17,816 bases of DNA from a virus (taxonomy: Duplodnaviria; Heunggongvirae; Uroviricota; Caudoviricetes): the IMG/VR virus record IMGVR_UViG_2939121850_000003. The stretch is one strand, 5' to 3'. How positions within the stretch are numbered: position 1 is the first letter of the stretch; each line of letters opens with the position of its first letter. Below the pieces are notes generated by a model that was given only the letters and a program-made list of their open reading frames with translations, had not been told where the DNA came from and made no database searches. The position numbers and the translations under genes were made by a program. This document shows positions 4,131-17,816 of this stretch, in pieces.

Positions 4131-4223
4131 TTTGTTTTAACCTCATGACAGATTTAAGGATGAACAAATCCCTGCCATTGCTGGCATATAAGAATGAAAC
4201 CGGATATTTATTACGGAACTGTT

Positions 4224-4415
4224 TTAAAGACCTGCCGGGATTTCGATATTATCCTGGTTAATAACTTTATCGACCGGGTAACAGTTACCGGGAATTTTCT
4301 GTTCGGTTGCTGCAGTCATACACTCCTGCATTGTCCTGTGAACACTGACTGCAATATCAACTGGCACTCCGGAAACAAGAAAAACTGTCAGAACAAGCGC
4401 AAATGCTGAATTCAT
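4224..4415 (-). CDS. Small hypothetical protein (63 aa from internal Met), hydrophobic N-terminus suggesting secretion or membrane anchoring
   Basis: Start ATG at 4415 overlaps the stop of the upstream ORF in an ATGA arrangement (plus-strand tcat at 4412-4415), implying translational coupling. Sequence MNSAFALVLTVFLVSGVPVD looks like a signal or TM segment. The ORF track extends to 4469, but that start would overlap the upstream gene by 58 bp. Confidence 0.5.
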   Translation of the reverse strand: MNSAFALVLTVFLVSGVPVDIAVSVHRTMQECMTAATEQKIPGNCYPVDKVINQDNIEIPAGL

Positions 4416-4600
4416 TGTGCACATCCTTTTGGCATCAGACGTAAACGAGCCAGCATTGAAACAATGCATATTTTATTTAATAGCTCCCGTTCTTGTTTTC
4501 TCTTGTTAATGGCATCTTCAGTAAATACAGGGTTACTGATAGTGACACCAATTTCAAAACAACCTTCAGACGTATTAACGTTTGGTAATAACGTTTTCAT
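4412..4600 (-). CDS. Small hypothetical protein (62 aa), first gene of the leftward operon
   Basis: ATG at 4600 is preceded by GAGGA with a 7-nt spacer (tgttGAGGAcgcgataATG on the minus strand). Stop overlaps the next start (ATGA). No family recognised. Confidence 0.5.
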   Translation of the reverse strand: MKTLLPNVNTSEGCFEIGVTISNPVFTEDAINKRKQERELLNKICIVSMLARLRLMPKGCAQ

Positions 4601-4652
4601 TATCGCGTCCTCAACAATGAATTTTGTGATGCAGTGCCTGGTGCCTCCAGGT

Positions 4653-4679
4653 GACGTTAACCAGTTAACAATTAACGTC
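4653..4679. promoter_or_regulatory. Operator-like palindrome in divergent control region (GACGTTAA-N11-TTAACGTC with iterated GTTAAC half-sites)
   Basis: 8-bp perfect inverted arms at 4653-4660 and 4672-4679. GTTAAC occurs at 4656-4661 and 4664-4669. Lies between the leftward operon start (4600) and the rightward genes. Confidence 0.45.
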
Positions 4680-4704
4680 GGATATCCGGATTAGTGATTT
4701 CAGG

Positions 4705-4926
4705 TTGTATCGTGAGATCAGTGATGGAAAAAGTATTACGTACATGATCGCCGGGTTAAATAAAGAATATGGCGATGTGGTGGAATCCGGACTGCTTTTT
4801 GCAGATCCTGCCGTTGTAGATCGTGAAACTGACGAACTTATAGAAAAAGCAATTGCTTTCAAGCTTGCGTATCGACAGCAATACCAACAAAAAGCTGGAT
4901 GGAATTATGAGTCTTCTTTTTGCTGA
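4705..4926 (+). CDS. Possible small early protein (73 aa, TTG start; alternative ATG at 4744)
   Basis: ORF occupies the position of a cro/cII-type gene at the head of the rightward operon and overlaps the next gene start by 20 nt. There is no convincing Shine-Dalgarno and no recognisable motif. Confidence 0.25.
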   Translation: MYREISDGKSITYMIAGLNKEYGDVVESGLLFADPAVVDRETDELIEKAIAFKLAYRQQYQQKAGWNYESSFC

Positions 4927-5872
4927 ACGCCCACTGGTTATAAACACGCAGCTGGCAATGAAAATTGGCTTAAACGAAGCCATTGTTTTGCAACAACTGC
5001 ACTACTGGTTGAGAGATACCAACTCCGGCATGGAATGTGATGGTGTTCGCTGGATTTATAACACAACGGAACAATGGCTGGAACAGTTCCCATTCTGGTC
5101 AGAGTCAACGTTAAAGCGCGCGTTTGCAAGTCTGAAAACGCTGGGGCTTTTGCGTTGTGAAAAGCTCAATAAATCAAAGCGCGATATGACCAATTTCTAC
5201 ACGATCAACTACGGGAGCGAGCTTTTAGATGGTGGCAAATTGAGCGAATCCATCGGTTTAAAATGCGCCGCTCCATCAGGTCAAAATGACACGATGGAAG
5301 AGGTCAAAATGAAACGCTCCATTGGTTCAAAACGACTCAATGTCATCGGGTCAAAATGGCCTGATGATCTTACAGAGAATACAACAGAGATTACTACAGA
5401 GAATAAAAAGACTTCTCGTCCGGAAGCTTCGCAACCGGACCCGCAGACGGTTGAACAGGATTTTTTAACCCGACACCCTGACGCGGTTGTGTTCAGTGCG
5501 AAAAAACGCCAGTGGGGCAGCCAGGAAGATTTGGCGTGTGCGCAGTGGATCTGGGGGCGAATCGTGAGTCTTTACGAGCAGGCCGCCAGCGATGATGGCG
5601 AGATTTCGCGACCGAAAGAACCCAACTGGACCGCATGGGCCAACGACGTGCGCACAATGCGGATGCTGGATGGCAGAACTCACAGACAAATTTGTGAAAT
5701 GTTTGGTCGGGTGCAGCGGGATCCATTCTGGGTAAAAAATATCATGAGTCCGTCAAAGCTTCGCGAAAAATGGGATGAACTGGTTATCCGCCTGGGGCGT
5801 TCGTCTGTACAGCGTTGTGTGAATCATATTTCTGAGCCGGATACCGAAATTCCGCCGGGCTTCAGGGGGTAA
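4907..5872 (+). CDS. Replication-initiator-like protein (winged-helix N-terminal domain, phage O / replisome-organiser type)
   Basis: ATG at 4907 gives MSLLFAERPLVINTQLAMKIGLNEAIVLQQLHYWL..., which reads as a winged-helix replication-initiator N-domain. The ORF track start at 4853 is a TTG. The C-terminal region (NWTAWANDVRTMRMLDGRTHRQICEMFG) is basic and DNA-binding-like. Gene order int-xis-exo / control region / rep fits a lambdoid layout. Confidence 0.65.
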   Translation: MSLLFAERPLVINTQLAMKIGLNEAIVLQQLHYWLRDTNSGMECDGVRWIYNTTEQWLEQFPFWSESTLKRAFASLKTLGLLRCEKLNKSKRDMTNFYTINYGSELLDGGKLSESIGLKCAAPSGQNDTMEEVKMKRSIGSKRLNVIGSKWPDDLTENTTEITTENKKTSRPEASQPDPQTVEQDFLTRHPDAVVFSAKKRQWGSQEDLACAQWIWGRIVSLYEQAASDDGEISRPKEPNWTAWANDVRTMRMLDGRTHRQICEMFGRVQRDPFWVKNIMSPSKLREKWDELVIRLGRSSVQRCVNHISEPDTEIPPGFRG

Positions 5873-5912
5873 GTGTTAATTTCTGGTCATGAGGTAATTT
5901 TCAGGAGGGCTT

Positions 5913-6335
5913 GTGGCAAAAGTTTTTACACAAGAAGAGCGGGAAAAAATTAAAGGGCAGGTTGTTGAACTCGTACGCCGGAGTGGGCGTGAGACGTTAC
6001 GGCAACTGGAAGTCAAGACAGGTGCGACAAGATATCTGATGAGCGTTCTCGCAAGAGAGCTGGTTGCCAGCGGCGATGTATACAACTCTGGTTACGGGTT
6101 ATTCCCGTCTGAACAGGCGCGTAAGGACTGGCAAAATGCCCGTAAAAAGCTCTCAAGGGCAAAGCTGAAGGAACCATCTGCGGTTGATCCGGACCTTATC
6201 TGGTCATTACCTGACGGAGAAATACGTCGTTACGACAGGCGTCATAATATGATTTGTACTGAGTGTCGTAAAAGCGAAGTTATGCAGCGCATATTGTCGT
6301 TTTATCAGGGGGATGTCCGGTATTTATTGAAGTGA
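5913..6335 (+). CDS. Hypothetical protein (140 aa), possible DNA-binding protein
   Basis: GTG start at 5913 preceded by a strong Shine-Dalgarno (cAGGAGGg at 5902-5909). Lies 41 bp after the rep-like gene, so probably co-transcribed. N-terminal segment ETLRQLEVKTGATRYLMSVLAREL looks HTH-like. Confidence 0.65.
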   Translation: MAKVFTQEEREKIKGQVVELVRRSGRETLRQLEVKTGATRYLMSVLARELVASGDVYNSGYGLFPSEQARKDWQNARKKLSRAKLKEPSAVDPDLIWSLPDGEIRRYDRRHNMICTECRKSEVMQRILSFYQGDVRYLLK

Positions 6336-6403
6336 CGAGATTAAAGTGCATTAGTTCAGATGCAAATTGACATTTTGTGGCACAGGGTAGAGCTAGCGTG
6401 GTT

Positions 6404-6427
6404 GTCCGCTTTGTGCCAAGAGCGGAC
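6404..6427 (+). repeat. 24-bp palindromic junction element, copy A (GTCCGCTTTGTGCCAAGAGCGGAC)
   Basis: 7-bp perfect stem GTCCGCT/AGCGGAC with 10-nt loop, between convergent genes (5913-6335 plus, 6465-7409 minus). 22/24 identical to copy B at 7620-7643. Confidence 0.8.
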
Positions 6428-6464
6428 TTTGCAAAATGGGGGTTATTTCAATCAAAACGTAACG

Positions 6465-7409
6465 TCACAACCAGCCGACGCTCTCTCGCCATTTATAATT
6501 AGTAACTTTATCATTTTCGCTTATTTTTTTAGATATAGAGCGCGGCTCTCTTCCTAGATACTCAGATATTTCTATCGGGGACAAATCAAAATCAACAAGC
6601 ATGACTCTAAGTTTTTCCATTTCCTTTAAAGTCCAAGGCTTGCCATAATTTTCATAAAGAGATACCTTATGCTCCCTGATAGTTCGCTTTCTCTGAGTTT
6701 CACTTTCCCTCTGAAAAATCTCGCTTTTAAATTGTGAACGGAACTCTTTACAGAAGTTGTTATCAGTTTTTTTGTTATATAGATTGCTAAAAATAAGCTG
6801 GGATGCCGGGTCTAAATCAGGTGTGTTAATAATGAAAACTTTGACCTTTTCCATATAGGGATATTCAATTTTACCCAATATGCTTAATTGCTTTATATTA
6901 AAAAAACCTCTCAAATCAAAAGATTTAATGAGCTTTGATTGGATTACACTTTCAATCCTGCTTGCATTTAAATAACAGTACTTTGCCATTGGAAGGGCCC
7001 ATACTACCAGTTGAGGAATATATTTTTCTAATGCAATGCTCTGCCAATCAGTATCAAAGGTTTGGCTTTTTGCTAGCATGTTTTTCGGCAAATCAGAATA
7101 CATTGTGGTAGATGCCCATATCTTATAATCATTCGCCAAGGCTTGATAGTATTTTGTGTGGTTATGAATTTTATAAGCTGACATGAAGCGATAAACGTCT
7201 TCGTCGTGACCAGCGTCGTAAATTGTTCGATTTCCTCTAAGATAACCGTCGTAATGTTCGGTTATCCTTCTACCTACATTACAACTTACCCCAACGTAAA
7301 CCACACGACTGAAAAGTCCTTTATGGACAATAAGATAAACTCCGCTACAGCCAGATTTCCTGGCCTCTGATAGAGAACCTAAAAATCTCCATTCCATAAT
7401 TAAATCCAT
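6465..7409 (-). CDS. GIY-YIG nuclease-domain protein (314 aa) with C-terminal HTH-like region
   Basis: N-terminal GVYLIVHKG...VVYVGVSCNVGRRITEHY matches the GIY-(N10)-YIG-(x)N...R...H nuclease signature. C-terminal WTLKEMEKLRVMLVDFDLSPIEISEYLGREPRSISKKI looks like a DNA-binding helix-turn-helix. The gene is strongly AT-rich relative to the flanking prophage genes (by eye). Confidence 0.8.
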   Translation of the reverse strand: MDLIMEWRFLGSLSEARKSGCSGVYLIVHKGLFSRVVYVGVSCNVGRRITEHYDGYLRGNRTIYDAGHDEDVYRFMSAYKIHNHTKYYQALANDYKIWASTTMYSDLPKNMLAKSQTFDTDWQSIALEKYIPQLVVWALPMAKYCYLNASRIESVIQSKLIKSFDLRGFFNIKQLSILGKIEYPYMEKVKVFIINTPDLDPASQLIFSNLYNKKTDNNFCKEFRSQFKSEIFQRESETQRKRTIREHKVSLYENYGKPWTLKEMEKLRVMLVDFDLSPIEISEYLGREPRSISKKISENDKVTNYKWRESVGWL

Positions 7410-7577
7410 AATTATTGCTACTGTTTTTGTTTATCATTATTTTCGTGAAACTTCAACAATTTTATCCAAAAGCTAAGGGCAAAGACTTATATAATTATAC
7501 TTGTCATCGTTAGCGATTATATAGAGTAGTGGCGCTGACCTGCTCCCTGGTGATTCACACAGAATGCTGTTAGTAAT

Positions 7578-7643
7578 GTCCGTTCCTCGCTCTCAGCGGA
7601 CCTTCAGCTCAGTGATATCGTCCGCTCTGTGCAAAGAGCGGAC
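7578..7643 (+). repeat. Two tandem copies of the 24-bp junction element (B0 7578-7601 GTCCGTTCCTCGCTCTCAGCGGAC; B 7620-7643 GTCCGCTCTGTGCAAAGAGCGGAC)
   Basis: Read directly. B forms a 9-bp perfect stem with a 6-nt loop. B0 shares the GTCC...GGAC ends and the central CGCTC. Located between the GIY-YIG gene start and the 449-aa gene end. Confidence 0.8.
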
Positions 7644-7956
7644 GTTGGTATGCAAGAGCCCTCCAAAAGTTGATGGTTGGTTTGCAGGGGGGCTTAAAGA
7701 AACTGCACTTATCAAGTTGAAGTTCTGTATTCAGCGAAATCGTAGCACTCTGACGATAAGTAACTCCGGTACTCCGCTCTTCGATGAAGAACCAGAGTAA
7801 TCCCCCCGAAAAACCAGCGCATCAAAATTGGATCTTCAGCGGTAGCTTATCGGCTATCGGAAGTACAGGTGTGGATTCGTGGTGAATTGCTTTGATAATA
7901 AACGATTAATACGGAAAAACGCATTAATCATTTATTAGCTTTTAGTAAACCACAAT

Positions 7957-9306
7957 TTATTCCGTTTTACATATCATAGTAGTCGATTGGAGAATATAGT
8001 TTCTGGGAATGTACTCTTCAAAGTGTTCGTCCTTTTTAAATACATGAACTACATTTGGGAATAATTGATAGTCAACAGGGTGTATAGCGTTTGGATTATG
8101 GTACATGTACATGGCTGTACACCATGGTTCTTGATAGTTAGGGTCACTTACATCGGCTGAAAATGGATGTGGGGCTGCATCCTGATCAGTTTTAACACCA
8201 CTGACGTACACTTTGAATCCACTCGCCTCTACACCTGCAAGAATTCCCATCCGGTTAAACTTAGGTATGGTTGCTTGAGTAGTGAGTAAAACGGCAGAAA
8301 CATAATTATTTTGTTCTGAGCCAAAAAAGTTCGACTTGATACTTCTATTTTCATCTGTATGTCTTTCAATAGAAATGCCTGACTCAATATCAATCCCGTA
8401 CAAATAGCTATGCAAGGCTTCGCTTGAGAAGGCCATGGACATTCTTTTTGAATAATCCTGCATTGCTATGACAAATGGTTTGTTCTTTGTATGGTTGAGT
8501 TCCCAGTAATGAACTTTCTCTGGCTCAGGGCAATGCCGGACTTTTTTTAATAAACTTCTTGCAAACTTAAAAGGCATGACATTTAGAACATGTTTTCTTA
8601 ATTCATCCATCTGTTCATCGTTAATGACTTTTCTTTCAAGAGGGGCTTCTGCTTCAGCAATGCTTACAGCCTCTACAGCAATTTCCACTCCAAATTTAGA
8701 TAGCAGAAAATCTGGTTGATTGTATTCTCTATTCATTTCAAAGTCGAGTTCATAAAATACAGCGTTCAAATATAATTCAAATAACCTTGAATTAAATGCA
8801 TCACTTTGAAAATCCCTTATAAATATTCCATCAGGATCTTTGAACCAGTATGCAAGTTCCTCAAGAACAATATATGCAGGGAAATGAAGAGGGTCTTCGA
8901 GGAGCATTTTTATATAAACATTCCTTTTTTTCGCTGGGACCTTACTCAAGAATAATGAAAAAGGTTTGGTTGATTCATCGCCTTGCATGAATGTACCATT
9001 TTGGTGCTGCGCCAGCATCTTTGGTATGTCATCGTTCAAATTATTAAGCAAGACATCCATTGAATCAAATGAAGCCAAGACGTTTATTGCTCTGAATTTT
9101 TTATCTAAATCCCGACCTAAGACTATTGCGTTAAAATCTTTATCAATATTGCATATGATTATTGTGGATAACAATGTTATCCCATTCCCCTCATATTTAA
9201 ACCAGCGTATCTCCTCAGAAAATGTCTTAAGGTAAGGTGAGCGACCGTAAAAATAAATATCAAATTGTTCTTTGCTGATCTCACTGAAGTGTAATCCTGC
9301 GTTCAT
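7957..9306 (-). CDS. Hypothetical protein (449 aa), no recognisable family
   Basis: Long uninterrupted ORF in the AT-rich block. ATG at 9306 is preceded by AAGGAA about 8 nt upstream on the minus strand. No Walker A, methyltransferase or other signature found by eye. Confidence 0.75.
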   Translation of the reverse strand: MNAGLHFSEISKEQFDIYFYGRSPYLKTFSEEIRWFKYEGNGITLLSTIIICNIDKDFNAIVLGRDLDKKFRAINVLASFDSMDVLLNNLNDDIPKMLAQHQNGTFMQGDESTKPFSLFLSKVPAKKRNVYIKMLLEDPLHFPAYIVLEELAYWFKDPDGIFIRDFQSDAFNSRLFELYLNAVFYELDFEMNREYNQPDFLLSKFGVEIAVEAVSIAEAEAPLERKVINDEQMDELRKHVLNVMPFKFARSLLKKVRHCPEPEKVHYWELNHTKNKPFVIAMQDYSKRMSMAFSSEALHSYLYGIDIESGISIERHTDENRSIKSNFFGSEQNNYVSAVLLTTQATIPKFNRMGILAGVEASGFKVYVSGVKTDQDAAPHPFSADVSDPNYQEPWCTAMYMYHNPNAIHPVDYQLFPNVVHVFKKDEHFEEYIPRNYILQSTTMICKTE

Positions 9307-9428
9307 ACCAATTCCTTTTCAATGAATAATTGGCCTTTAGGAGTGATTCCCTTTGTCTTTAATTCAGTTCTAACTAGTTCTTTAATCCAATAGCCTAAGC
9401 TCATCATGCAGTTGGATCATAAGACAAC

Positions 9429-9457
9429 GCCCTATAGTGCTCGTGATACTATAGGGC
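9429..9457. repeat. Inverted repeat with 10-bp arms and 9-nt spacer (GCCCTATAGT / ACTATAGGGC)
   Basis: Perfect inverted repeat read directly in the divergent intergenic region upstream of the short recombinase gene. Confidence 0.6.
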
Positions 9458-9560
9458 ATCTGACCACACTGTTAACTGGAGTAACGACTATGGCAGGAAT
9501 ACAGCATAACCAAACTCACCCCAAACTTACATAGCGCTTTCTGGCCGTGAGCATAACAAG

Positions 9561-9584
9561 GTCCACTCCTCGCTCATAAGGGAC
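9561..9584 (+). repeat. 24-bp junction element, copy C (GTCCACTCCTCGCTCATAAGGGAC)
   Basis: 18/24 identity to copy B0, including the conserved GTCC 5' end, central TCCTCGCTC and GGAC 3' end. Lies between the 449-aa gene and the recombinase. Confidence 0.6.
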
Positions 9585-9590
9585 AACCAT

Positions 9591-9623
9591 ACTCAAATCT
9601 CCCACATTGCAGGAGATTTGAGT
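9591..9623 (+). promoter_or_regulatory. Perfect 12-bp hairpin sequestering the recombinase Shine-Dalgarno (ACTCAAATCTCC-N9-GGAGATTTGAGT)
   Basis: Right arm 9612-9623 contains GGAG and ends one nucleotide before the ATG at 9624. The architecture (12-bp inverted arms, 9-nt spacer) could alternatively be a protein-binding or recombination core-type site. Confidence 0.6.
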
Positions 9624-10226
9624 ATGAACACGTCACCGTGGAACAAAGACCGTATCATAGGCCAAAAAAGACCACTTCAGATATCTCATATCTGGGGTAT
9701 CCGAATCCGACTTGAACTGGAAGGTAAAACTCGCGATTTAGCTCTGTTCAACATGGCCCTGGATAGTAAGCTTCGAGGCTGTGATCTGGTCAAACTCAAA
9801 GTATCTGATGTTGCATATGGTGGCTCTGTTTCAAGCAGAGCAACGGTGTTGCAACAGAAAACCGGTAGCCCTGTTCAATTTGAGATAACCAAAGGGACAA
9901 GAGAAGCTGTTGCTGCATTGATACAGCTTAGCAATTTGCACAGTAAAGACTTCTTGTTTCGGTCTAGGGTCGGAACTAACCAGCACATTTCAACCCGGCA
10001 ATACAACCGAATCTTTCATGGGGGGGTAGAAAAGCTTGGTCTCGAAGATTCGCTTTACAGCACACATTCCATGAGAAGAACAAAACCTTACCTGATCTAC
10101 AAGAAAACCAAGAATCTCCGGGTGATCCAACTTCTGTTGGGTCATAAGAAACTGGAAAGCACAGTCCGTTATCTGGGCATTGAAGTCGATGATGCGTTAG
10201 AGATTTCTGAATCGATTGAAGTCTAA
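9624..10226 (+). CDS. Short tyrosine recombinase (about 200 aa, FimB/FimE-like catalytic-domain-only integrase)
   Basis: From ATG 9624 (MNTSPW...); the ORF track's 9618 is a TTG. Contains an R box (TRDLALFNMALDSKLRGCDLVKLKVSDV), HSMRRT (H-x-x-R) and LLGHKKLESTVRYLG (GH...Y). Size and motif spacing match the FimB/FimE family of small invertase-type tyrosine recombinases. Confidence 0.8.
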   Translation: MNTSPWNKDRIIGQKRPLQISHIWGIRIRLELEGKTRDLALFNMALDSKLRGCDLVKLKVSDVAYGGSVSSRATVLQQKTGSPVQFEITKGTREAVAALIQLSNLHSKDFLFRSRVGTNQHISTRQYNRIFHGGVEKLGLEDSLYSTHSMRRTKPYLIYKKTKNLRVIQLLLGHKKLESTVRYLGIEVDDALEISESIEV

Positions 10227-10230
10227 GGTT

Positions 10231-10268
10231 GTCAGGGCTGCAACAGCAGCCCTGTGCCATAAGCGGAA
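10231..10268 (+). repeat. Stem-loop (CAGGGCTG-caacag-CAGCCCTG) and possible expanded variant of the junction element (copy E)
   Basis: 8-bp perfect stem beginning 7 nt after the recombinase stop, with no U-tract. The segment begins GTCAGG and ends CATAAGCGGA, loosely resembling the GTCC...GGAC elements. Confidence 0.4.
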
Positions 10269-10585
10269 GTATTTAACAACTATCAGTGTTGTTCAACAGA
10301 TAAAGGGGCACTTGATTTTTTCTGTTCTCAGGAAATGATAAAAGCGCGTCGGTTCAAGCCTGCTTAACGGGAGTTTGTTAATCCTGTTGCCGTGACGTTT
10401 TGACACCATTATGATGGGGAGACACTTAATGTATGAAGGTTCCGCCACTTATACCTGTCCAACAACTGCCTCGGATGTTTCTTTGTATGAATAAGTGGTA
10501 ATGAGTAGTGAATCGCTAACAGTCACCCGAACAATCGGTGCCTGCAATTAATTCTATATTCTAAACGAGGGGGAGATTATTACAC

Positions 10586-11566
10586 ATGAAATTTAAGGAC
10601 AAGAACCTTAAGGCTCTCGCGGAATGTATCATAGGAGATAATAAGGCATTTCTGTATCGTTCAAGCAGTCACATCACTGAATTTTTCCAGGACTGCGGCA
10701 TGGATGTTACTCATGACGGATCCACTCGGTGGAAATGGACGGCCCAGAGGCTTGAAGAACTTCTTTATGAGCCACAGTCAAAGCCACATACTTTGCCGGA
10801 AAGGTTTGTTCATGTGCTCAGAACTTTAATGTTAAAAGAAGATGCAATGGATGACGATCCAGGAAGATTAAAGGCGCTTGAAGAACTGAACAAGCCTTTG
10901 ATGCGGGAAGGCTATGAGGCATTCTATGGTGACGATCGCCTTTTGTATATACGCCATACCGATACCAAAACGGTTTCAGTCAGTAATAACCCTCATCGGC
11001 CCTTAACGCCTCACGAAGTAGAATGCAGAAGGTTACTGACCGCGTTTCTTGATACCTGCTCAGAAGATGAGTTAATAGAAGATATTCTCCTTCCTTTATT
11101 CCGGCAACTTGGTTTTCACCGGATAACAGCAGTGGGACATAAAGATAAAGCGCTGGAATACGGGAAAGACATCTGGATGAAGTTCACACTGCCAACTCAG
11201 CATGTTCTTTATTTCGGCATTCAGGCAAAAAAAGGTAAGTTGGATGCGTCCGGTGCCAGCAAATCTACGAATTCAAACGTGGCAGAAATCTTCAACCAGG
11301 TACTGATGATGCTTGGCCATGAAATATTTGACCCAGAAACAAATAGAAAGGTGCTGGTAGATCATGCCTTTATCGTTGCTGGCGGAGAAATTACTAAACA
11401 GGCGAGGAACTGGCTGGGCGGGAAACTTGATGCCAGCAAAAGAAGCCAGATAATATTTATGGACCGGGAAGACATTCTTAATTTATATACTGTAAGTAAT
11501 GTACCTCTGCCAACAGGTGCTCTCATCTCTGATGATGCCGTTAAGAACGATGATATTCCTTTCTAA
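10586..11566 (+). CDS. Protein with C-terminal Mrr-like PD-(D/E)XK restriction-endonuclease-type motif and uncharacterised N-terminal domain (326 aa)
   Basis: ATG at 10586 preceded by gaGGGGGAGa. C-terminal segment ITAVGHKDKALEYGKDIWMKF...HVLYFGIQAKKGK shows the D...(I/V)QxK arrangement of Mrr-type nuclease cores. The N-terminal 170 aa or so have no motif I recognise. Confidence 0.75.
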   Translation: MKFKDKNLKALAECIIGDNKAFLYRSSSHITEFFQDCGMDVTHDGSTRWKWTAQRLEELLYEPQSKPHTLPERFVHVLRTLMLKEDAMDDDPGRLKALEELNKPLMREGYEAFYGDDRLLYIRHTDTKTVSVSNNPHRPLTPHEVECRRLLTAFLDTCSEDELIEDILLPLFRQLGFHRITAVGHKDKALEYGKDIWMKFTLPTQHVLYFGIQAKKGKLDASGASKSTNSNVAEIFNQVLMMLGHEIFDPETNRKVLVDHAFIVAGGEITKQARNWLGGKLDASKRSQIIFMDREDILNLYTVSNVPLPTGALISDDAVKNDDIPF

Positions 11567-11648
11567 TCAGAAGTACGTCTTTTTCTGAAAGAATACGTGA
11601 TAGGTAGCCACACCACACCTTTAGTGACCCCTTAATCTGGTAATATAA

Positions 11649-11682
11649 CAGCCCGTATGAATGTCCGCGGCATCGCGGGCTG
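11649..11682 (+). terminator. Possible terminator-like stem-loop downstream of the Mrr-like gene (CAGCCCG...CGGGCTG, inner CCGCGG palindrome)
   Basis: 7-bp outer stem followed by an A/T-rich stretch (aaatttattaaaaatac). The U-tract is imperfect. Confidence 0.3.
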
Positions 11683-11790
11683 AAATTTATTAAAAATACT
11701 TATTCATCAAGCTGGAGTAGTTTGCCGAGTAACTGTAAACGCCCAACTTAACCGGACCATTCACTTTTAGATTGCTACCAGCAAACCAAC

Positions 11791-11814
11791 TTCCGTTTCT
11801 CGCTCAAAGCGGAC
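11791..11814 (+). repeat. 24-bp junction element, copy D (TTCCGTTTCTCGCTCAAAGCGGAC)
   Basis: 20/24 identity to copy B0. Located between the Mrr-like gene and the small-ORF/hok region. Confidence 0.6.
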
Positions 11815-11993
11815 TAGAAGGTTAGCTTGCGTCGGACTTGGCGTATTTAAAGAAGTGCTGGTGGTAACTGGTTGTTGTGTTCCATTTCTACAAAACAAAA
11901 TCACAGAAACTATACCCAATAGTTATATTGAATCAATGATGAGACAGCCTCATATTTATCAGAACTGGTGTACGTCCAATACAGGAGGTTGTC

Positions 11994-12083: not shown

Positions 12084-12237
12084 TTTTATATTGGCGAGGT
12101 GACGGGAGTTAAGTAGAATTGCTGCGGGTGCTTGAGGCTATCTGCCTCAGGCATGAACACCAAAGGCAGATAGAGAAAAGCCCCAGTTAACATTACGCGT
12201 CCTGCAAGACGTTTAACATTAATCTGAGGCTCAATCT

Positions 12238-12450
12238 ATGAACGGCAAATCTAGGTTAGCCTCTTACGTGCCGAAAGGCAAGGAGAAGCAGGCTATGAAG
12301 CAGCAAAAGGCGATGTTAATCGCCCTGATCGTCATCTGTTTAACCGTCATAATGACGGCACTGGTAACGAGGAAAGACCTCTGCGAGGTACGAATCCGAA
12401 CCGGCCAGACGGAGGTCGCTGTCTTCACAGCTTACGAACCTGAGGAGTAA
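12238..12450 (+). CDS. mok-like in-frame leader extension of the hok gene (70 aa reading frame)
   Basis: The ORF starts 19 codons upstream of the hok start in the same frame, as in chromosomal mok/hok loci. Whether it is translated independently is inferred. Confidence 0.45.
   Translation: MNGKSRLASYVPKGKEKQAMKQQKAMLIALIVICLTVIMTALVTRKDLCEVRIRTGQTEVAVFTAYEPEE
12295..12450 (+). CDS. hokD: Hok/Gef-family type I toxin (51 aa), hokD/relF-type
   Basis: MKQQKAMLIALIVICLTVIMTALVTRKDLCEVRIRTGQTEVAVFTAYEPEE matches my recollection of E. coli HokD (RelF) almost exactly and the Hok family signature (TRKDLCEV...E/TEVAAF). Internal ATG at 12295. Confidence 0.85.
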   Translation: MKQQKAMLIALIVICLTVIMTALVTRKDLCEVRIRTGQTEVAVFTAYEPEE

Positions 12451-13263: not shown

Positions 13264-14619
13264 GTGCGGGTATTACTTCGACCTGTTCTGGTACCGGAAC
13301 TCGGGCTGGTGGTCGTTAAGCCGGGCCGTGAATCCATGCCGGTATTCCACAATACCCGGGTAACCGAAGCGCTCGACACGACATTAGGACTGCTTACAAA
13401 AACAGGACGAGACTGGAACACGCAGCATACTGATAACATTAATAAATTTATACCAATTGCAGGCAGTACAAACGGCCCGGCAGGCTCTATGGTTCTTGGC
13501 GGCATTCATGTTCAATTTAGTAAAAATTATGCTGTGCAGTTCGGAGGCCGCAATTCCGGTTTTTGGGGAAGAACAATTGAAAATGGAACGACACAGGAAT
13601 GGAAGAAATTACTAACAGTAGACGATCTCAATTCATCTACCGATCTTGCTGTCAGGTCATTAACCACATCTAACCCGGTAAAATCTGGCGGAGGGCGAAT
13701 TGATGTCCTTGGAAGCACGTCAGACTATAGCAAAATGGATTGCTTTGTACGTGGGTTTGATAGCACCGGTAATTCTCTCGTGTGGGCGTTGGGTTCATCA
13801 GTCGGCGTAAGTAAGATGCTATCGCTAAAAAATTTCTTTAGCGGAGCTGAGATACTGTTAAATGGTAATGACGGCGCGGTTCAACTCAAAACAGGTGCTG
13901 TTAACGGGGCTACAGCGCAGACGCTCACTATCAACAAGAATGAGGTTAACTCAACCGTTGATTTAACCCTTACAAAGCAATCAGGGACTGGTAATCGTTT
14001 TGTTTTACAGAACTCAGGTAATGCAGAACTACCGTTTTCTGTCAGGGTGTGGGGTTCCAGTACTCGACAAAACGTTTTTGAGGTTGGAACGTCTGCTGCG
14101 TATCTGTTTTATGCGCAAAAAACGTCAGCAGGCCAGTTGTTTGATGTAAATGGCGCTATTAATTGCACAACGCTGAATCAGTCATCAGACCGCGACCTTA
14201 AAGACGATATTCTCGTTATCAGCGACGCGACGAAAGCAATCCGTAAAATGAACGGATACACCTACACGCTCAAGGAAAACGGGATGCCTTATGCTGGCGT
14301 TATTGCACAGGAAGTAATGGAGGCGATACCAGAAGCTGTGGGATCGTTTACTCATTATGGTGAAGAGTTGCAAGGTCCGACCGTTGACGGCAACGAGCTA
14401 CGCGAAGAAACTCGCTATCTTAATGTTGACTACTCCGCCGTGACGGGTTTACTTGTTCAGGTCGCCCGTGAAACAGATGATCGCGTTACCGCGCTGGAAG
14501 AGGAAAACACAACGCTACGTCAAAATCTGGCAACAGCAGGCACCCGGATCAGCACTCTGGAAAATCAGGTAAGCGAACTGGTTGCACTTGTCCGGCAGTT
14601 AACAGGAAGCGAACATTGA
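13264..14619 (+). CDS. Phage tail fibre protein, C-terminal fragment with S74-type intramolecular chaperone domain
   Basis: C-terminal region has the SDxxxK Ser-Lys dyad context (SSDRDLKDDILVISDATKAIRKMNGYTYTL...) and a coiled-coil tail typical of self-cleaving tail-fibre or tailspike chaperone domains. Upstream Gly/Ser/Thr/Asn-rich beta-type repeats. The N-terminus (GTG start, odd MRVLLRPVLVPELG) lacks a tail-attachment domain, so the gene is probably truncated. Confidence 0.75.
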   Translation: MRVLLRPVLVPELGLVVVKPGRESMPVFHNTRVTEALDTTLGLLTKTGRDWNTQHTDNINKFIPIAGSTNGPAGSMVLGGIHVQFSKNYAVQFGGRNSGFWGRTIENGTTQEWKKLLTVDDLNSSTDLAVRSLTTSNPVKSGGGRIDVLGSTSDYSKMDCFVRGFDSTGNSLVWALGSSVGVSKMLSLKNFFSGAEILLNGNDGAVQLKTGAVNGATAQTLTINKNEVNSTVDLTLTKQSGTGNRFVLQNSGNAELPFSVRVWGSSTRQNVFEVGTSAAYLFYAQKTSAGQLFDVNGAINCTTLNQSSDRDLKDDILVISDATKAIRKMNGYTYTLKENGMPYAGVIAQEVMEAIPEAVGSFTHYGEELQGPTVDGNELREETRYLNVDYSAVTGLLVQVARETDDRVTALEEENTTLRQNLATAGTRISTLENQVSELVALVRQLTGSEH

Positions 14620-14799
14620 TATCCTTCAAGCCCTGAAGGAGGCTGTTCCTGGTACGTTCAGACTGTTGTTGAGCTGGAAATCGCAACGGAGGAAGAAACT
14701 TCGTTGCTGGAAGTCTGGAAGAAGTATCGGGTGTTGCTGAACCGTGTTAATACAACAACTGCACCGGATATTGAATGGCCAGTAGCACCTATAGGGTAA
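14620..14799 (+). pseudogene. tfa: Remnant of tail fibre assembly gene (tfa), C-terminal about 45 codons only
   Basis: Translation [42 protein letters not shown] matches the conserved C-terminus of lambda Tfa as I recall it (..[39 protein letters not shown]). It lies in the same frame as the tail-fibre ORF, separated only by the TGA at 14617-14619. Confidence 0.65.
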
Positions 14800-14873
14800 A
14801 TTCGTAATGATTACCTAAATACGTTATTCTTTTGTTCAAAAAGTGATTTTGCTATAGGTAGGGAGTATGTTCT

Positions 14874-14912
14874 TGGATTAAGAATAAAAATCGCCATGAA
14901 AGAGCTTCATGG
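14874..14912 (-). terminator. Intrinsic-terminator-like hairpin on the minus strand (stem CGCCATGAA/TTCATGGCG, loop AGAGC, then T-rich tract on minus strand)
   Basis: 9-bp perfect stem at 14890-14912. Plus-strand A-run 14874-14889 (aagaataaaaat) reads as ATTTTTATTCTT after the stem on the minus strand. Confidence 0.35.
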
Positions 14913-15378
14913 CGAGTACATAAACGTACAAAATATGATGAAAGTAGAGTGGCGTAAGCCACTATATTAAGATATGACAATAGCGAAGAAAAGTAAATAA
15001 CATTTTATGGGCGTTTAATTGTTAATTATAAAAACTAGAGTGCCCGATATTGTTTATCTTGCTTTAAAATAATGTACTCAAACCAAATTTTTGAGCTAAA
15101 AGCTCAAATAATATAAATGCAATGATAATGTTTAATAAGACAATTAGCTTGCTTTGTATTTTCATTTCGGAATACTGTTAAGTAACTTTGATGACACTAA
15201 CAATAGATCGGAATTTTCTTAGAGTCAATGGTCACTGTTTTTGCTTGCAAAGCAAATGTTTTTGGTGGTTATAAGTTTTCTTAATATAGTCACCTATGCA
15301 ACTTGTTCCGTGTGGAGATTAAAGGTTAAAATTTAATGCGAAGATGGAATTATAATATATTTTTTTATAATTAATTTA

Positions 15379-15486
15379 ACCTTAACATCGTTGCTGGCGG
15401 CATGGAAGAAATATCGGGTCTTGCTGATGTCGTGTTGGCACTTCCTTAGTGCGGTTATCGAATGGCCAGCTGTACCTGTGGGGTAA
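15379..15486 (+). pseudogene. Second degenerate tfa C-terminal remnant
   Basis: Translation ..[14 protein letters not shown]...IEWPAVPVG* with the internal segment scrambled, consistent with indels. Direct repeat of 14620-14799. Confidence 0.55.
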
Positions 15487-16143
15487 AAACTTTATATGGG
15501 TGCTATTTTTATAATAGCTGGTAAAAACTGGCCGAACTGAAATTCACTGTTGATAAAAAAGATGTGTTTGAGTGTATGTCATTGTTTTCTTAACGGAATC
15601 CACTAGAATGCAGCGAATTTAAGAAGGTGGGTTTTTATTGGAATATAAACTACAATAATGCTCAACTCGTTCGTAGAATTGTTTTTTCTTATTTTTTGGA
15701 ATGCTAACCATTATATGCATTATGGGGGCGATACTTCCTGATAATTTACATGATGCATACATTGAAGCAATAAATTCAATATCATTGTCATCAAAGTTAA
15801 AGCTTTCTCCGTCCATTTCAATTCCTTATGTGTTTGGCATAACTGATGCTGTATCCCATGAGAATTTATGCAAGTTGTTATGTTTGATTTGATATTGCAA
15901 TGATAATTGTAGCTAATTGTTTTCAATTGAGTGAAAGTTTATTTCGAGTGATTAAGTCGAAAAAAAAGATTTCTCACGGTTAGTAAGCGTATTAGGTTAG
16001 TATTCAGATATGAATGGTATTAATGACTAAATTTTCAATCATATATGGATTTTTATGCTGATGAAGATGTTTTATTTGGCGATTCGTCAAGCATCTTCAC
16101 TTAAGTAATCGTATATTTTAAGAGTGCAAAAGAGAAAGGGACA

Positions 16144-16240
16144 ACGTTGCTCGCACTCTGGATTAAATATAGGGTGTTGTTAAACTGCGTTGATACATAA
16201 TTGTACCGGATATTGAGTGGTCTGAAGTCCCAGTCATTAA
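16144..16240 (+). pseudogene. Third degenerate tfa C-terminal remnant
   Basis: Translation TLLALWIKYRVLLNCVDT* followed out of frame by VPDIEWSEVPV. Direct repeat of the two copies upstream. Confidence 0.5.
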
Positions 16241-16532
16241 GTAATCGTTTCGTGATATGCCGCAGAAACGTTGTATGCAATAACGTTCTGCGGTTGGCTG
16301 ATGCACTTTCGAGAGTGTATTGAATAATTTCAAGCCGTTATTGTTTTTACGCGTAACACCATGAAAAGACTGCTTATCTGTTGGGGTATTTTTTGGGGCA
16401 TATATGGGACAGAAATAGGCCACAGATAGATAGTAAGATCGAACTCAGGATGCTTTTGAAAAAATGTAACTATCTGAAAAAAACTAGAAAGCGCCAAGGA
16501 AACCACAGAATGAGAAAAAACATCTGTGAATT

Positions 16533-17816
16533 ATGGATTTCCAGTTATATTCGCTCGGCGCAGCGTTAGTGTTTCATGAAATATTTTTTCCTGAATCATC
16601 AACGGCAATGGCGTTAATTTTGGCAATGGGAACCTACGGTGCAGGTTATGTGGCGCGTATTGTCGGAGCATTTATTTTCGGCAAAATGGGCGACAGAATA
16701 GGGCGTAAAAAAGTGCTCTTTATTACCATCACCATGATGGGGATCTGTACTACCTTAATTGGTGTGTTACCGACCTATGCACAGATTGGTGTTTTTGCCC
16801 CCATCTTGCTGGTGACGCTGCGTATTATTCAGGGGTTGGGTGCAGGTGCGGAAATTTCCGGTGCCGGTACGATGCTGGCGGAATATGCACCAAAAGGTAA
16901 GCGCGGAATTATCTCCTCATTTGTAGCTATGGGAACTAACTGCGGAACCTTGAGCGCAACGGCAATCTGGGCCTTTATGTTCTTCATTCTCAGTAAAGAG
17001 GAACTGCTGGCGTGGGGATGGCGTATACCGTTCCTGGCGAGCGTTGTCGTGATGGTCTTTGCTATCTGGTTACGTATGAATCTGAAAGAAAGCCCGGTCT
17101 TTGAGAAGGTTAATGACAGCAACCAACCCACAGCAAAACCTGCACCTGCTGGTAGCATGTTCCAGAGCAAATCCTTCTGGCTGGCAACAGGGCTGCGTTT
17201 TGGTCAGGCGGGTAACTCCGGGTTAATTCAGACTTTCCTTGCAGGCTATTTAGTGCAGACGTTATTGTTTAACAAAGCAATTCCAACAGATGCATTGATG
17301 ATTAGTTCGATTCTCGGCTTTATGACCATTCCGTTCCTTGGTTGGTTATCCGATAAAATTGGTCGCCGGATCCCGTATATTATTATGAATACCTCCGCGA
17401 TTGTGCTGGCATGGCCAATGCTTTCTATCATTGTAGATAAAAGCTATGCCCCGAGCACCATTATGGTTGCACTGATTGTGATTCATAACTGTGCGGTGCT
17501 GGGATTATTTGCTCTGGAAAACATTACCATGGCAGAAATGTTCGGCTGTAAAAACCGCTTTACCCGGATGGCTATTTCTAAAGAAATTAGTGGTCTTATC
17601 GCTTCCGGTTTTGGTCCTATCCTGGCGGGTATTTTCTGCACCATGACGGAATCCTGGTATCCGATCGCCATTATGATCATGGCATATTCAGTAATTGGTT
17701 TAATCTCTGCGCTGAAAATGCCAGAGGTGAAAGACCGTGATTTAAGTGCGCTGGAAGACGCTGCGGAAGATCAACCGCGTGTTGTAAGAGCTGCGCAACC
17801 TTCCAGAAGTCTGTAA
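16533..17816 (+). CDS. ydfJ: MFS transporter, metabolite:H+ symporter (MHS) family, 5'-truncated (ydfJ-like)
   Basis: 427-aa ORF with MHS-family signatures (GDRIGRKKVLFITITMMG, WGWRIPFL, 12-TM-type hydrophobicity). It begins inside the conserved TM1 motif (expected ..EWYDFYLYG.., found MDFQLYSL), so the N-terminus is missing or frameshifted. The adjacent hokD and tail-fibre genes match the K-12 arrangement where Qin interrupts ydfJ. Symbol assigned from context and recalled length, not from a search. Confidence 0.75.
   Translation: MDFQLYSLGAALVFHEIFFPESSTAMALILAMGTYGAGYVARIVGAFIFGKMGDRIGRKKVLFITITMMGICTTLIGVLPTYAQIGVFAPILLVTLRIIQGLGAGAEISGAGTMLAEYAPKGKRGIISSFVAMGTNCGTLSATAIWAFMFFILSKEELLAWGWRIPFLASVVVMVFAIWLRMNLKESPVFEKVNDSNQPTAKPAPAGSMFQSKSFWLATGLRFGQAGNSGLIQTFLAGYLVQTLLFNKAIPTDALMISSILGFMTIPFLGWLSDKIGRRIPYIIMNTSAIVLAWPMLSIIVDKSYAPSTIMVALIVIHNCAVLGLFALENITMAEMFGCKNRFTRMAISKEISGLIASGFGPILAGIFCTMTESWYPIAIMIMAYSVIGLISALKMPEVKDRDLSALEDAAEDQPRVVRAAQPSRSL

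Follow-up and report, generated by a model that had tools for sequence, protein, structure and literature searches.

Why does a lambdoid prophage carry, between two conserved genes of its backbone, a row of accessory genes punctuated by one short element, and what is the part of the small tyrosine recombinase encoded among them? The question is raised by a 17,816-nucleotide stretch of tailed-phage DNA (Caudoviricetes; IMG/VR virus record IMGVR_UViG_2939121850_000003), the whole of which is called the window below, and more precisely by the accessory block that occupies its positions 6404 to 11814. The initial annotation of this DNA had noticed a 24-bp (base pairs) GTCC...GGAC element at the gene junctions of the block, and had compared the layout with a cassette array following an integron-like logic. 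We find that the block is probably a mobile gene-cassette array served by its own site-specific recombinase: the variation of the cargo and the association of the recombinase with the elements support the comparison, but the system is not an integron in the strict sense.

GTCC-N16-GGAC is matched exactly at four positions of the window, 6404, 7578, 7620 and 9561, always on the + strand; shuffled versions of the window contain 0.08 copies on average, and none of 200 shuffles reaches four. The copy at 11791 is one base off (TTCC...GGAC). With one mismatch allowed, the end pattern is found 6 times for 3.2 expected, which is not significant alone, so that the significance of the elements lies in the exact copies and in their common internal sequence, not in the loose end pattern. 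The five copies first named A, B0, B, C and D are confirmed. The possible sixth, placed at 10231, is not; the true sixth copy is a degenerate one at 10245–10268 and, once it is counted, an element does stand at every gene junction of the block, all six being intergenic. As had been observed, the elements are co-oriented (six of six) with cargo genes on both strands, and they are missing from the prophage on either side: no copy occurs in the window outside 6404–11814. A common chromosomal repeat is ruled out, the junction formed by two neighbouring elements and their spacer being found in 703 of 5426 E. coli genomes, at 1–3 places each.

The idea of a single element had to be abandoned, as the copies belong instead to two types, which we call L and R, with common arms and different cores. 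The consensus, built from unique copies gathered at related loci (68 L, 80 R), is GTCCGCTyy GTGCCA rrAGCGGAC for L (window copies at 6404, 7620 and 10245) and GTCCGCTyy TCGCTC anAGCGGAC for R (window copies at 7578, 9561 and 11791). Each site thus consists of two inverted 7–9-bp arms (GTCCGCTyy / rrAGCGGAC) around a 6-bp core and, because the arms are mutually inverted, the direction of a site is set by its 6-bp middle only. The reverse complement of the L core, TGGCAC, is equal to the R core TCGCTC at four of the six bases and differs at positions 2 and 5; judged from these sequences, L is in effect an inverted R whose core has diverged.

With these two types the block has the order backbone - L - cassette 1 - R - 18 bp - L - cassette 2 - R - recombinase - L - cassette 4 - R - backbone (Table 1). 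Each cargo has an L on its left and an R on its right, and at one junction the recombinase gene takes the place of the spacer (R-int-L). The 18-bp spacer has an identical copy in the island of strain Nissle 1917 and in viral contigs; across genera the spacer measures 15–18 bp, with one 1-bp exception (locus L022), and its sequence is not conserved.

Table 1. Sites, cargo genes, recombinase gene and hairpins of the accessory block, in window positions.
Feature	Position	Strand	Description
L site A	6404..6427	+	GTCCGCTTT GTGCCA AGAGCGGAC; left array boundary; left arm is prophage backbone
Cassette 1 cargo	6465..7409	-	314 amino acids (aa); N-terminal GIY-YIG match, E 0.017, below the Pfam cut-off
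R site B0	7578..7601	+	GTCCGTTCC TCGCTC TCAGCGGAC; right end of cassette 1
R-L spacer, 18 bp	7602..7619	.	cttcagctcagtgatatc; R + spacer + L form the 66-bp inter-cassette junction
L site B	7620..7643	+	GTCCGCTCT GTGCAA AGAGCGGAC; left end of cassette 2
Cassette 2 cargo	7957..9306	-	PD-T7-1, known anti-phage defence gene, 449 aa; PADLOC PDLC04073
R site C	9561..9584	+	GTCCACTCC TCGCTC ATAAGGGAC; left arm from cassette 2, core and right arm from the recombinase module
Leader hairpin	9588..9626	+	Perfect 15-bp stem pairing the Shine-Dalgarno sequence (GGAG) and the recombinase ATG; -21.3 kcal/mol, z -5.6
Tyrosine recombinase	9624..10226	+	200 aa from ATG 9624 (202 aa from TTG 9618); catalytic domain only
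Stem-loop (E of the initial annotation)	10230..10254	+	Directly 3' of the recombinase stop; -12.6 kcal/mol, z -3.8
Degenerate L site	10245..10268	+	AGCAGCCCT GTGCCA TAAGCGGAA; boundary between the recombinase module (right end) and cassette 4 (left end)
Cassette 4 cargo	10586..11566	+	326 aa; family not assigned by Pfam, NCBIfam or PADLOC
R site D	11791..11814	+	TTCCGTTTC TCGCTC AAAGCGGAC; right array boundary; right arm is prophage backbone; one mismatch

Comparison with other genomes indicates that the cassettes travel as units. The cargo-side arms of the PD-T7-1 cassette (AGAGCGGAC gttggtatgc ... gagcataacaag GTCCACTCC) are retained in four backbones. Besides the array of the window, these are a lambdoid hotspot where it is the single cassette (mEp460/JE86), the G|FI locus of a P2-like Yersinia phage, and a Morganella phage that has it between umuDC and the tail fibre gene; the outer arms and the flanks are every time the backbone's own. 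In the same way cassette 1 keeps its cargo-side arms, the distal arms being those of the backbone, in three contexts: the window and two others (L107, L108), one adjoining a P4-like integrase and one in a chromosomal defence island beside a NACHT gene. In all these occurrences—a small sample—the orientation of both cassettes relative to L and R is always the same.

The limits of the BLAST matches tell where the breakpoints lie. They fall at 7620, 9584, 7592 and 9562–9570: the matches to cassette 2 in the P2-like phage and in strain JE86-ST02 begin at 7620, one E. coli match to cassette 1 (H226) stops at 7592, the last base of the core of R site B0, and the matches to the recombinase module in other genomes start at 9562–9570, those restricted to the recombinase unit ending at about 10267–10275. 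The changeover in identity lies no earlier than the last base of one arm and no later than the first bases of the opposite arm, which places the breakpoint within the 6-bp core, the hallmark of a simple tyrosine-recombinase site. The arms of the mEp460/JE86 allele point in the same direction: its L combines the left arm of A with the right arm of B, and its R the left arm of C with the right arm of D, so that the array of the window equals that allele plus two insertions. The added units, cassette 1-R-spacer-L at L and recombinase-L-cassette 4-R at R, fit what two circle insertions would leave.

The simplest form of the arrangement is met in phage P2, whose Z/fun moron at the G|FI locus has the structure L-cargo-R (GTCCGCTCT GTGCCA AGAGCAGAC ... 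GTCCGCTCC TCGCTC AAAGCAGAC); the whole P2 genome contains exactly two sites, the L and the R around Z/fun. The elements likewise delimit cassettes on plasmids, in chromosomal islands, and in P2-like, Morganella and Klebsiella phages. A further backbone was seen in four IMG/VR contigs (L092, L094, L095 and L096) and in L107, with the L-side flank ...cactgtctctcg and the R-side flank attcactacagt; it bears two-cassette arrays whose second cassette measures 1.4 kb or 3.0 kb according to the contig. It is probably another hotspot, possibly located in P4-like satellites.

Does the cargo vary while the elements stay in place? The position between the DUF977 gene and hokD, which the array of the window occupies, is a hypervariable spot of E. 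coli lambdoid prophages, and eleven of its alleles were read. In eight of the eleven both backbone sides are constant, ...gtggtt GTCCGCTTT GTGCCA on the left and TCGCTC AAAGCGGAC tagaaggttagc on the right, save for single-base variants in two of the eight. The cargo-side arms and the cargo are different in each of these eight: the array of the window; PD-T7-1 alone (phage mEp460, strain JE86); a regulator with a GNAT acetyltransferase (phage Evi); a 444-aa gene (phage Tritos); AbiH with a partner gene; a RelA/SpoT-domain protein; retron Ec67; and a TetR-amidohydrolase-Ham1-SIR2 operon. The check proposed with the initial annotation is thus answered positively, the same bounding sites enclosing at least eight cargoes at this position. 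Phage mEp460_ev081 (L112) presents, besides the hotspot pair, a third and weaker L-like site at 41042–41065 (GTCAGCTCT GAGCCA GTGGCGGAC); it lies in the late region, between two small genes and without a partner R, and could be either a chance occurrence or the remains of a cassette position.

The recombinase of the block matches the Phage_integrase family of Pfam (PF00589) at 63.9 bits for a cut-off of 27.1 (E 2.1e-17, residues 37–186) and is labelled site-specific integrase in RefSeq. Residues R53, K81, H150, R153, H176 and Y185 are invariant in 13 aligned sequences (relatives at 61–88% identity), and its H-x-x-R, LLGH and Y align with those of XerD; by these residues, the enzyme looks active. 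The 200 aa do not include an N-terminal core-binding domain as in Xer or Cre, the catalytic match starting at residue 37, and the Xer models are matched over their C-terminal halves only, with a score far below the cut-off. The description of the protein as a FimB/FimE-sized tyrosine recombinase is right as to size, domain make-up and enzyme class, but does not extend to membership of that family: the FimB/FimE-type invertase models give 27.4 bits for NF007371 (cut-off 222) and 19.2 bits for NF007370 (cut-off 221). The integron integrase models give 17.5 bits for NF011946 (cut-off 435) and 17.2 bits for TIGR02249 (cut-off 265). An AlphaFold model, calculated from a shallow alignment, was poor (predicted local distance difference test, pLDDT, of 43). 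The Shine-Dalgarno sequence, sequestered by the leader hairpin in the window, is fully paired in minimum-energy folds at 49 of 78 loci of the recombinase family from many genera, with differing stem sequences. The folding predictions suggest that the recombinase may be translationally repressed and normally made at a very low level.

The association of the recombinase with the sites holds well beyond this prophage. In a wider sample of 80 loci—one genome per species, protein 58–98% identical, Gamma- and Betaproteobacteria—72 sites were found in the 1.23 Mb around the recombinase loci, against 5 in shuffled sequence. Where the gene is intact in Enterobacterales, it is preceded at about 56 bp by an R site and followed at 18–22 bp by an L site, both oriented with the gene; all Enterobacterales loci examined have GTGCCA with an rrAGCGGAC-like arm 18–22 bp 3' of the gene, and many more distant relatives have CGGCCA with GAAGCGGMC downstream. 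At about 60% identity (Pseudomonas, Burkholderiales and others) the upstream site becomes GTCCGCTTy with TGGCCG or GGGTCG, and the downstream one CGGCCA or CGACCC with GAAGCGGmC. The recombinase is therefore tied to the element elsewhere, the right half of R being always upstream and L always downstream of the gene, inside site arrays in many genera. Arrays of up to eight or more cassettes, of the form L-cargo-R-(15–18 bp)-L, exist on chromosomes and plasmids of Buttiauxella, Pectobacterium, Phytobacter, Klebsiella, Erwinia and Rahnella. In the island of Nissle 1917 the order is L - HEC-08 gene - R - int - L - gene - R - gene - R - 18 bp - L - TonB receptor/ABC operon - R, and a metagenome-assembled genome of Buttiauxella (L009) has two recombinase copies in one array (10007–10609 and 13862–14464), with an R site before each.

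Loci L045, L048, L084 and others of the Pseudomonas type display near-perfect 24-bp inverted repeats, GTCCGCTTC TGGCCG GTTAGCGAC and its complement, about 70–125 bp upstream and 20–50 bp downstream of the gene, the downstream copy being within a terminator-like hairpin; as far as the repeats indicate, such a layout would allow inversion of the recombinase gene itself.

The gene is carried by 347 plasmids. A role in plasmid dimer resolution was considered and rejected: the gene occurs on one small plasmid only, itself a lambda-dv-like piece of lambdoid prophage with a recombinase pseudogene at the same hotspot. This E. coli plasmid, pZ1323HEC0067-2 (L110, 8461 bp), bears cI/cro, replication genes, the hotspot, hokD and rem, and its hotspot contains a DUF5677 gene, the recombinase pseudogene and an AAA ATPase with HNH; either a prophage fragment has been excised and replicates, or the circle is an artefact of assembly. 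In the P2-like Yersinia phage vB_YpM_22 (L089), positions 2340–2430 of the Z/fun locus consist of an R site, the recombinase leader and the first 20 nucleotides of its gene, followed directly by P2 backbone. This stretch is what a deletion has left, and it shows that the recombinase was once present in P2-like phages.

From these observations the following mechanism can be proposed. The 200-aa recombinase would bind the arms and exchange strands across the core, L pairing with L and R with R. Within one molecule, LxL or RxR recombination would excise a circle, cargo-R-spacer-L or int-L-cargo-R, which could then enter any L or R site. Two molecules would, by LxL and then RxR, trade the segment in between, a natural case of recombinase-mediated cassette exchange. 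LxR recombination would invert the cargo, but the two mismatches in the core are expected to hinder it. As phages usually have one cassette without recombinase, the enzyme is assumed to act in trans from arrays of the host. Defence and other accessory genes would thereby pass among lambdoid and P2-like phages, plasmids and chromosomal islands. The scheme makes definite predictions: an RxR circle should have the junction ...cagcaaaccaac TTCCGTTTC TCGCTC ATAAGGGAC aaccatactc..., an LxL circle the junction ...ctcagtgatatc GTCCGCTCT GTGCMA AGAGCGGAC tttgcaaaatgg..., and the scar should read ataacaag GTCCACTCC TCGCTC AAAGCGGAC tagaagg, the predicted scars being identical to the sites of mEp460/JE86. 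We infer the catalysis of these exchanges by the enzyme, the circular intermediates and the block of LxR from the arrangement described above.

Several observations weigh against this interpretation. Three of the eleven hotspot alleles (QueH, QueH with a Kiwa-like gene, and alpha/beta hydrolase) have a decayed L site or none. An empty site, with the backbone flanks joined by a single palindrome, was looked for in viral contigs with the P2 and the lambdoid flanks and not found with either. Nor does the scheme account for the first acquisition of an L...R pair by a backbone. Both sites adjoining the recombinase gene in the window have poor inner arms (ATAAGGGAC and AGCAGCCCT), and in the Pseudomonas-type loci the flanking sites are exact inverted copies of one site, which fits inversion or an insertion sequence (IS)-like unit equally well. 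Among 50,697 records of isolated phages the recombinase has 3 matches, all distant. Finally, the 6-bp extent of the core and the block of LxR by positions 2 and 5 are conjectured by analogy with Cre/lox.

Among the other explanations, the one that survives best, although we think it doubtful, takes the junction as the mobile unit: R-int-L would be an IS-like element, the 66-bp R-spacer-L a derivative of it resembling a miniature inverted-repeat transposable element, and the cassettes simply the DNA comprised between insertions. The perfect 24-bp inverted repeats around the gene in Pseudomonas-type loci would suit such an element, as would the fact that the outer arm and the core are the best-conserved part of the sites around the recombinase gene. 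In the same direction, the recombinase module (R core to L core, about 9570–10268) is present in 914 of the 5426 E. coli genomes, mostly without cassette 4 and with other neighbours on both sides. However, the single cassettes of P2, lambdoid, Morganella and Klebsiella phages have one complete L and one complete R and no junction unit. The same cargo moreover takes its cargo-side arms along when it moves; among the cargo genes seen, no two were neighbours with a junction in one place and without it in another, and no target-site duplications are evident.

Somewhat less probable still, the elements could be mere boundary or linker sequences, insulators or terminator hairpins, the cargo being swapped by homologous or short-homology recombination (RecA, Red/RecET) with the recombinase as a passenger. 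The initial annotation had kept shared operator or terminator motifs as its own fallback. L sites do form good hairpins (z -3.8), the flanks in DUF977 and hokD are conserved, so that homologous recombination could swap lambdoid cargo, and most phages with sites have no recombinase. Yet a terminator scan of the window listed none of the element copies, and the R copies fold no better than shuffled sequences; on these grounds the terminator/operator reading was rejected. The unrelated backbones in which the cassettes are found—lambdoid, P2-like, Morganella, islands—have only the 24-bp site in common, with breakpoints in its 6-bp core. A linker would hardly account either for the two distinct cores kept across genera, or for the fixed position and orientation of the sites relative to the recombinase gene down to 60% protein identity. 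As for the stem-loop that directly follows the recombinase gene, it may be a terminator, though it has no T-run and is absent from the terminator scan; the degenerate L site overlaps its 3' half.

The sites might also be used by another enzyme, host XerC/XerD or a phage integrase, with a different or local role for the small recombinase; we regard this as quite improbable. It is true that genomes and phages devoid of the small recombinase commonly contain L/R cassettes, and that the counts of E. coli genomes with the junction (703) and with the recombinase (914) come with co-carriage checked in a few genomes only. Nevertheless, throughout Gamma- and Betaproteobacteria the sites go together with the recombinase family, their sequence changing along with it, and a remnant of its gene persists beside the cassette of the P2-like phage. 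Compared by eye, the sites bear no likeness to E. coli dif.

Least probable of all is a DNA invertase of the FimB/FimE or Rci kind that would switch the expression of its neighbours, with cassette diversity as a by-product, since its size and domain make-up, the mutual inversion of L and R and the location of the gene itself between inverted sites are outweighed by the constant orientation of PD-T7-1 and cassette 1 in all contexts seen, the two conserved core positions that distinguish L from R in Enterobacterales and should hinder LxR, cargo made of whole genes on either strand with their own upstream regions, and scores far under the invertase-family cut-offs.

What does the array carry? The 449-aa gene of cassette 2, described as an orphan at first, is PD-T7-1: the match to the PADLOC model is full-length (E 7.3e-157, residues 8–447 against 2–448 of 452). 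PD-T7-1 was found experimentally as an anti-phage gene (PMC9519451). Between its 3' end and the L site, positions 7815–7895 correspond to a fragment annotated in RefSeq as an AlpA/helix-turn-helix regulator, which moves along with cassette 2 into the P2-like phage and JE86. The claim of two or three nuclease-type genes in the block is only weakly supported. The cassette 1 gene, with its GIY-YIG match below the cut-off, is called 'GIY-YIG nuclease family protein' in one RefSeq record of the same array (H224); the 326-aa protein of cassette 4 has no match in Pfam, NCBIfam or PADLOC, and a separate E. coli DNA match to its gene, at 87% identity, is annotated 'restriction endonuclease' (H90). More widely, a survey of 92 open reading frames from arrays and single cassettes, taken with the hotspot alleles, yields the defence functions PD-T7-1/5, HEC-08, SIR2-HerA, ThsA-like, AbiH, retron Ec67, Lit peptidase, LmuA and AriA; the survey also contains GNAT acetyltransferases, LysR regulators, MFS transporters, reductases and an iron-uptake operon. 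Such a cargo is typical of mobile accessory pools.

The element that hosts the array is a defective lambdoid prophage adjoining rspB in E. coli, and the block (6300–11900) is 100% identical to the chromosome of many strains, e.g. WCHEC035148 and 042. On the left of the array the window contains, in order, integrase and excisionase, an 823-aa exonuclease, ydfD and dicB, a replication protein and the DUF977 protein; on the right come hokD/sok, rem, DUF968, rusA, the antiterminator, tRNAs and broken tail genes. The sok antitoxin RNA is full-length at 12126–12300 (Rfam RF01794, 111.7 bits), with hokD directly on the right of the array, and is the only match to known RNA families in the window; the hok/sok module makes up the backbone that stays constant on the right of the hotspot. 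From dicB to the replication gene (4200–5900) a repressor/cro pair is not annotated and one pseudogene is, and in the late region (13264–17816) three tRNA genes are followed by truncated fragments: holin, tail-tip and S74-peptidase tail fibre. The prophage of the window thus looks defective.

How does the system compare with those already described? With integrons it shares co-oriented short sites at each junction, a dedicated tyrosine recombinase, a variable cargo including anti-phage systems, and possibly a circular cassette with one composite site (R-spacer-L, about 60–66 bp). The differences are nevertheless numerous. With its 200 aa the recombinase is shorter than IntI (about 320 aa), and it lacks a core-binding domain. 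The sites, of two 24-bp types, have a conserved sequence and are devoid of the attC motifs RYYYAAC/GTTRRRY; an attC-like single hairpin was looked for in the 66-bp junction, whose predicted fold gives two separate small hairpins. Since no folding is predicted for the R sites, the substrate is more likely to be double-stranded than folded like attC. Each cassette lies between two different sites, the junctions holding two of them (R-spacer-L), and the recombinase gene is inside the array and not at one end, with cargo on both strands provided with its own upstream regions.

The pdif modules of Acinetobacter plasmids are also accessory modules placed in rows between oppositely oriented sites and recurring in different replicons. 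pdif are 28-bp dif-like sites for host XerC/XerD; here, by contrast, the sites have 24 bp and GTCCGCT/AGCGGAC arms, the junctions contain two sites and not one common site, and a dedicated recombinase travels along. The loxP/lox2272 cassette exchange, which is a laboratory design, likewise relies on identical arms and on cores that differ at two symmetric positions and recombine like with like only, so that a segment between heterospecific sites can be exchanged and not excised or inverted; the parallel with L and R is drawn from sequence alone. With FimB/FimE and Rci/sfx the system has in common an enzyme of about 200 aa without N-terminal core-binding domain, short sites and, for sfx, some sites composed of one good and one poor arm; on the other hand no inverted cargo was seen, and the segments comprise entire genes instead of promoters or gene ends.

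For P2 the system was in part anticipated in 2004. Inverted repeats flanking fun, and a site-specific exchange with bacteria deduced from them, are attributed to Nilsson et al. 2004 in a citing passage of PMC8987985. The L and R sites described here bracket the same P2 cargo and are presumably these repeats; the citing passages themselves mention neither a recombinase nor two site types, arrays, the lambdoid hotspot or a spread beyond enterobacteria. A literature search, by text for the site sequence and for the topics of cassettes, recombinase, P2, hotspots and defence, returned no description of the recombinase, of the two site types or of the arrays. Defence hotspots of P2-like and lambdoid prophages are for their part well documented, and Rousset 2022 and Vassallo 2022 mention no sites or recombinase there; the turnover of the hotspot contents was so far unexplained.

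We consider it evenly balanced whether the system goes further and constitutes a second cassette-capture platform, independent of integrons, spread over Gamma- and Betaproteobacteria, and shuttling defence genes among phages, plasmids and islands by means of two heterospecific sites. If so, the platform would be the molecular mechanism behind several known 'defence hotspots', among them P2 Z/fun and lambdoid DUF977|hok. If the recombinase does act on L and R, the enzyme behind the site-specific exchange deduced for P2 fun in 2004 would be identified, and its sites would form a compact natural two-site exchange system, a potential tool for genome engineering. The two 24-bp motifs together with the 200-aa recombinase would then be a searchable signature for new cassettes and candidate defence genes and, for the bacteria and phages concerned, the movement of defence genes between phages, plasmids and chromosomes would have a testable mechanism.

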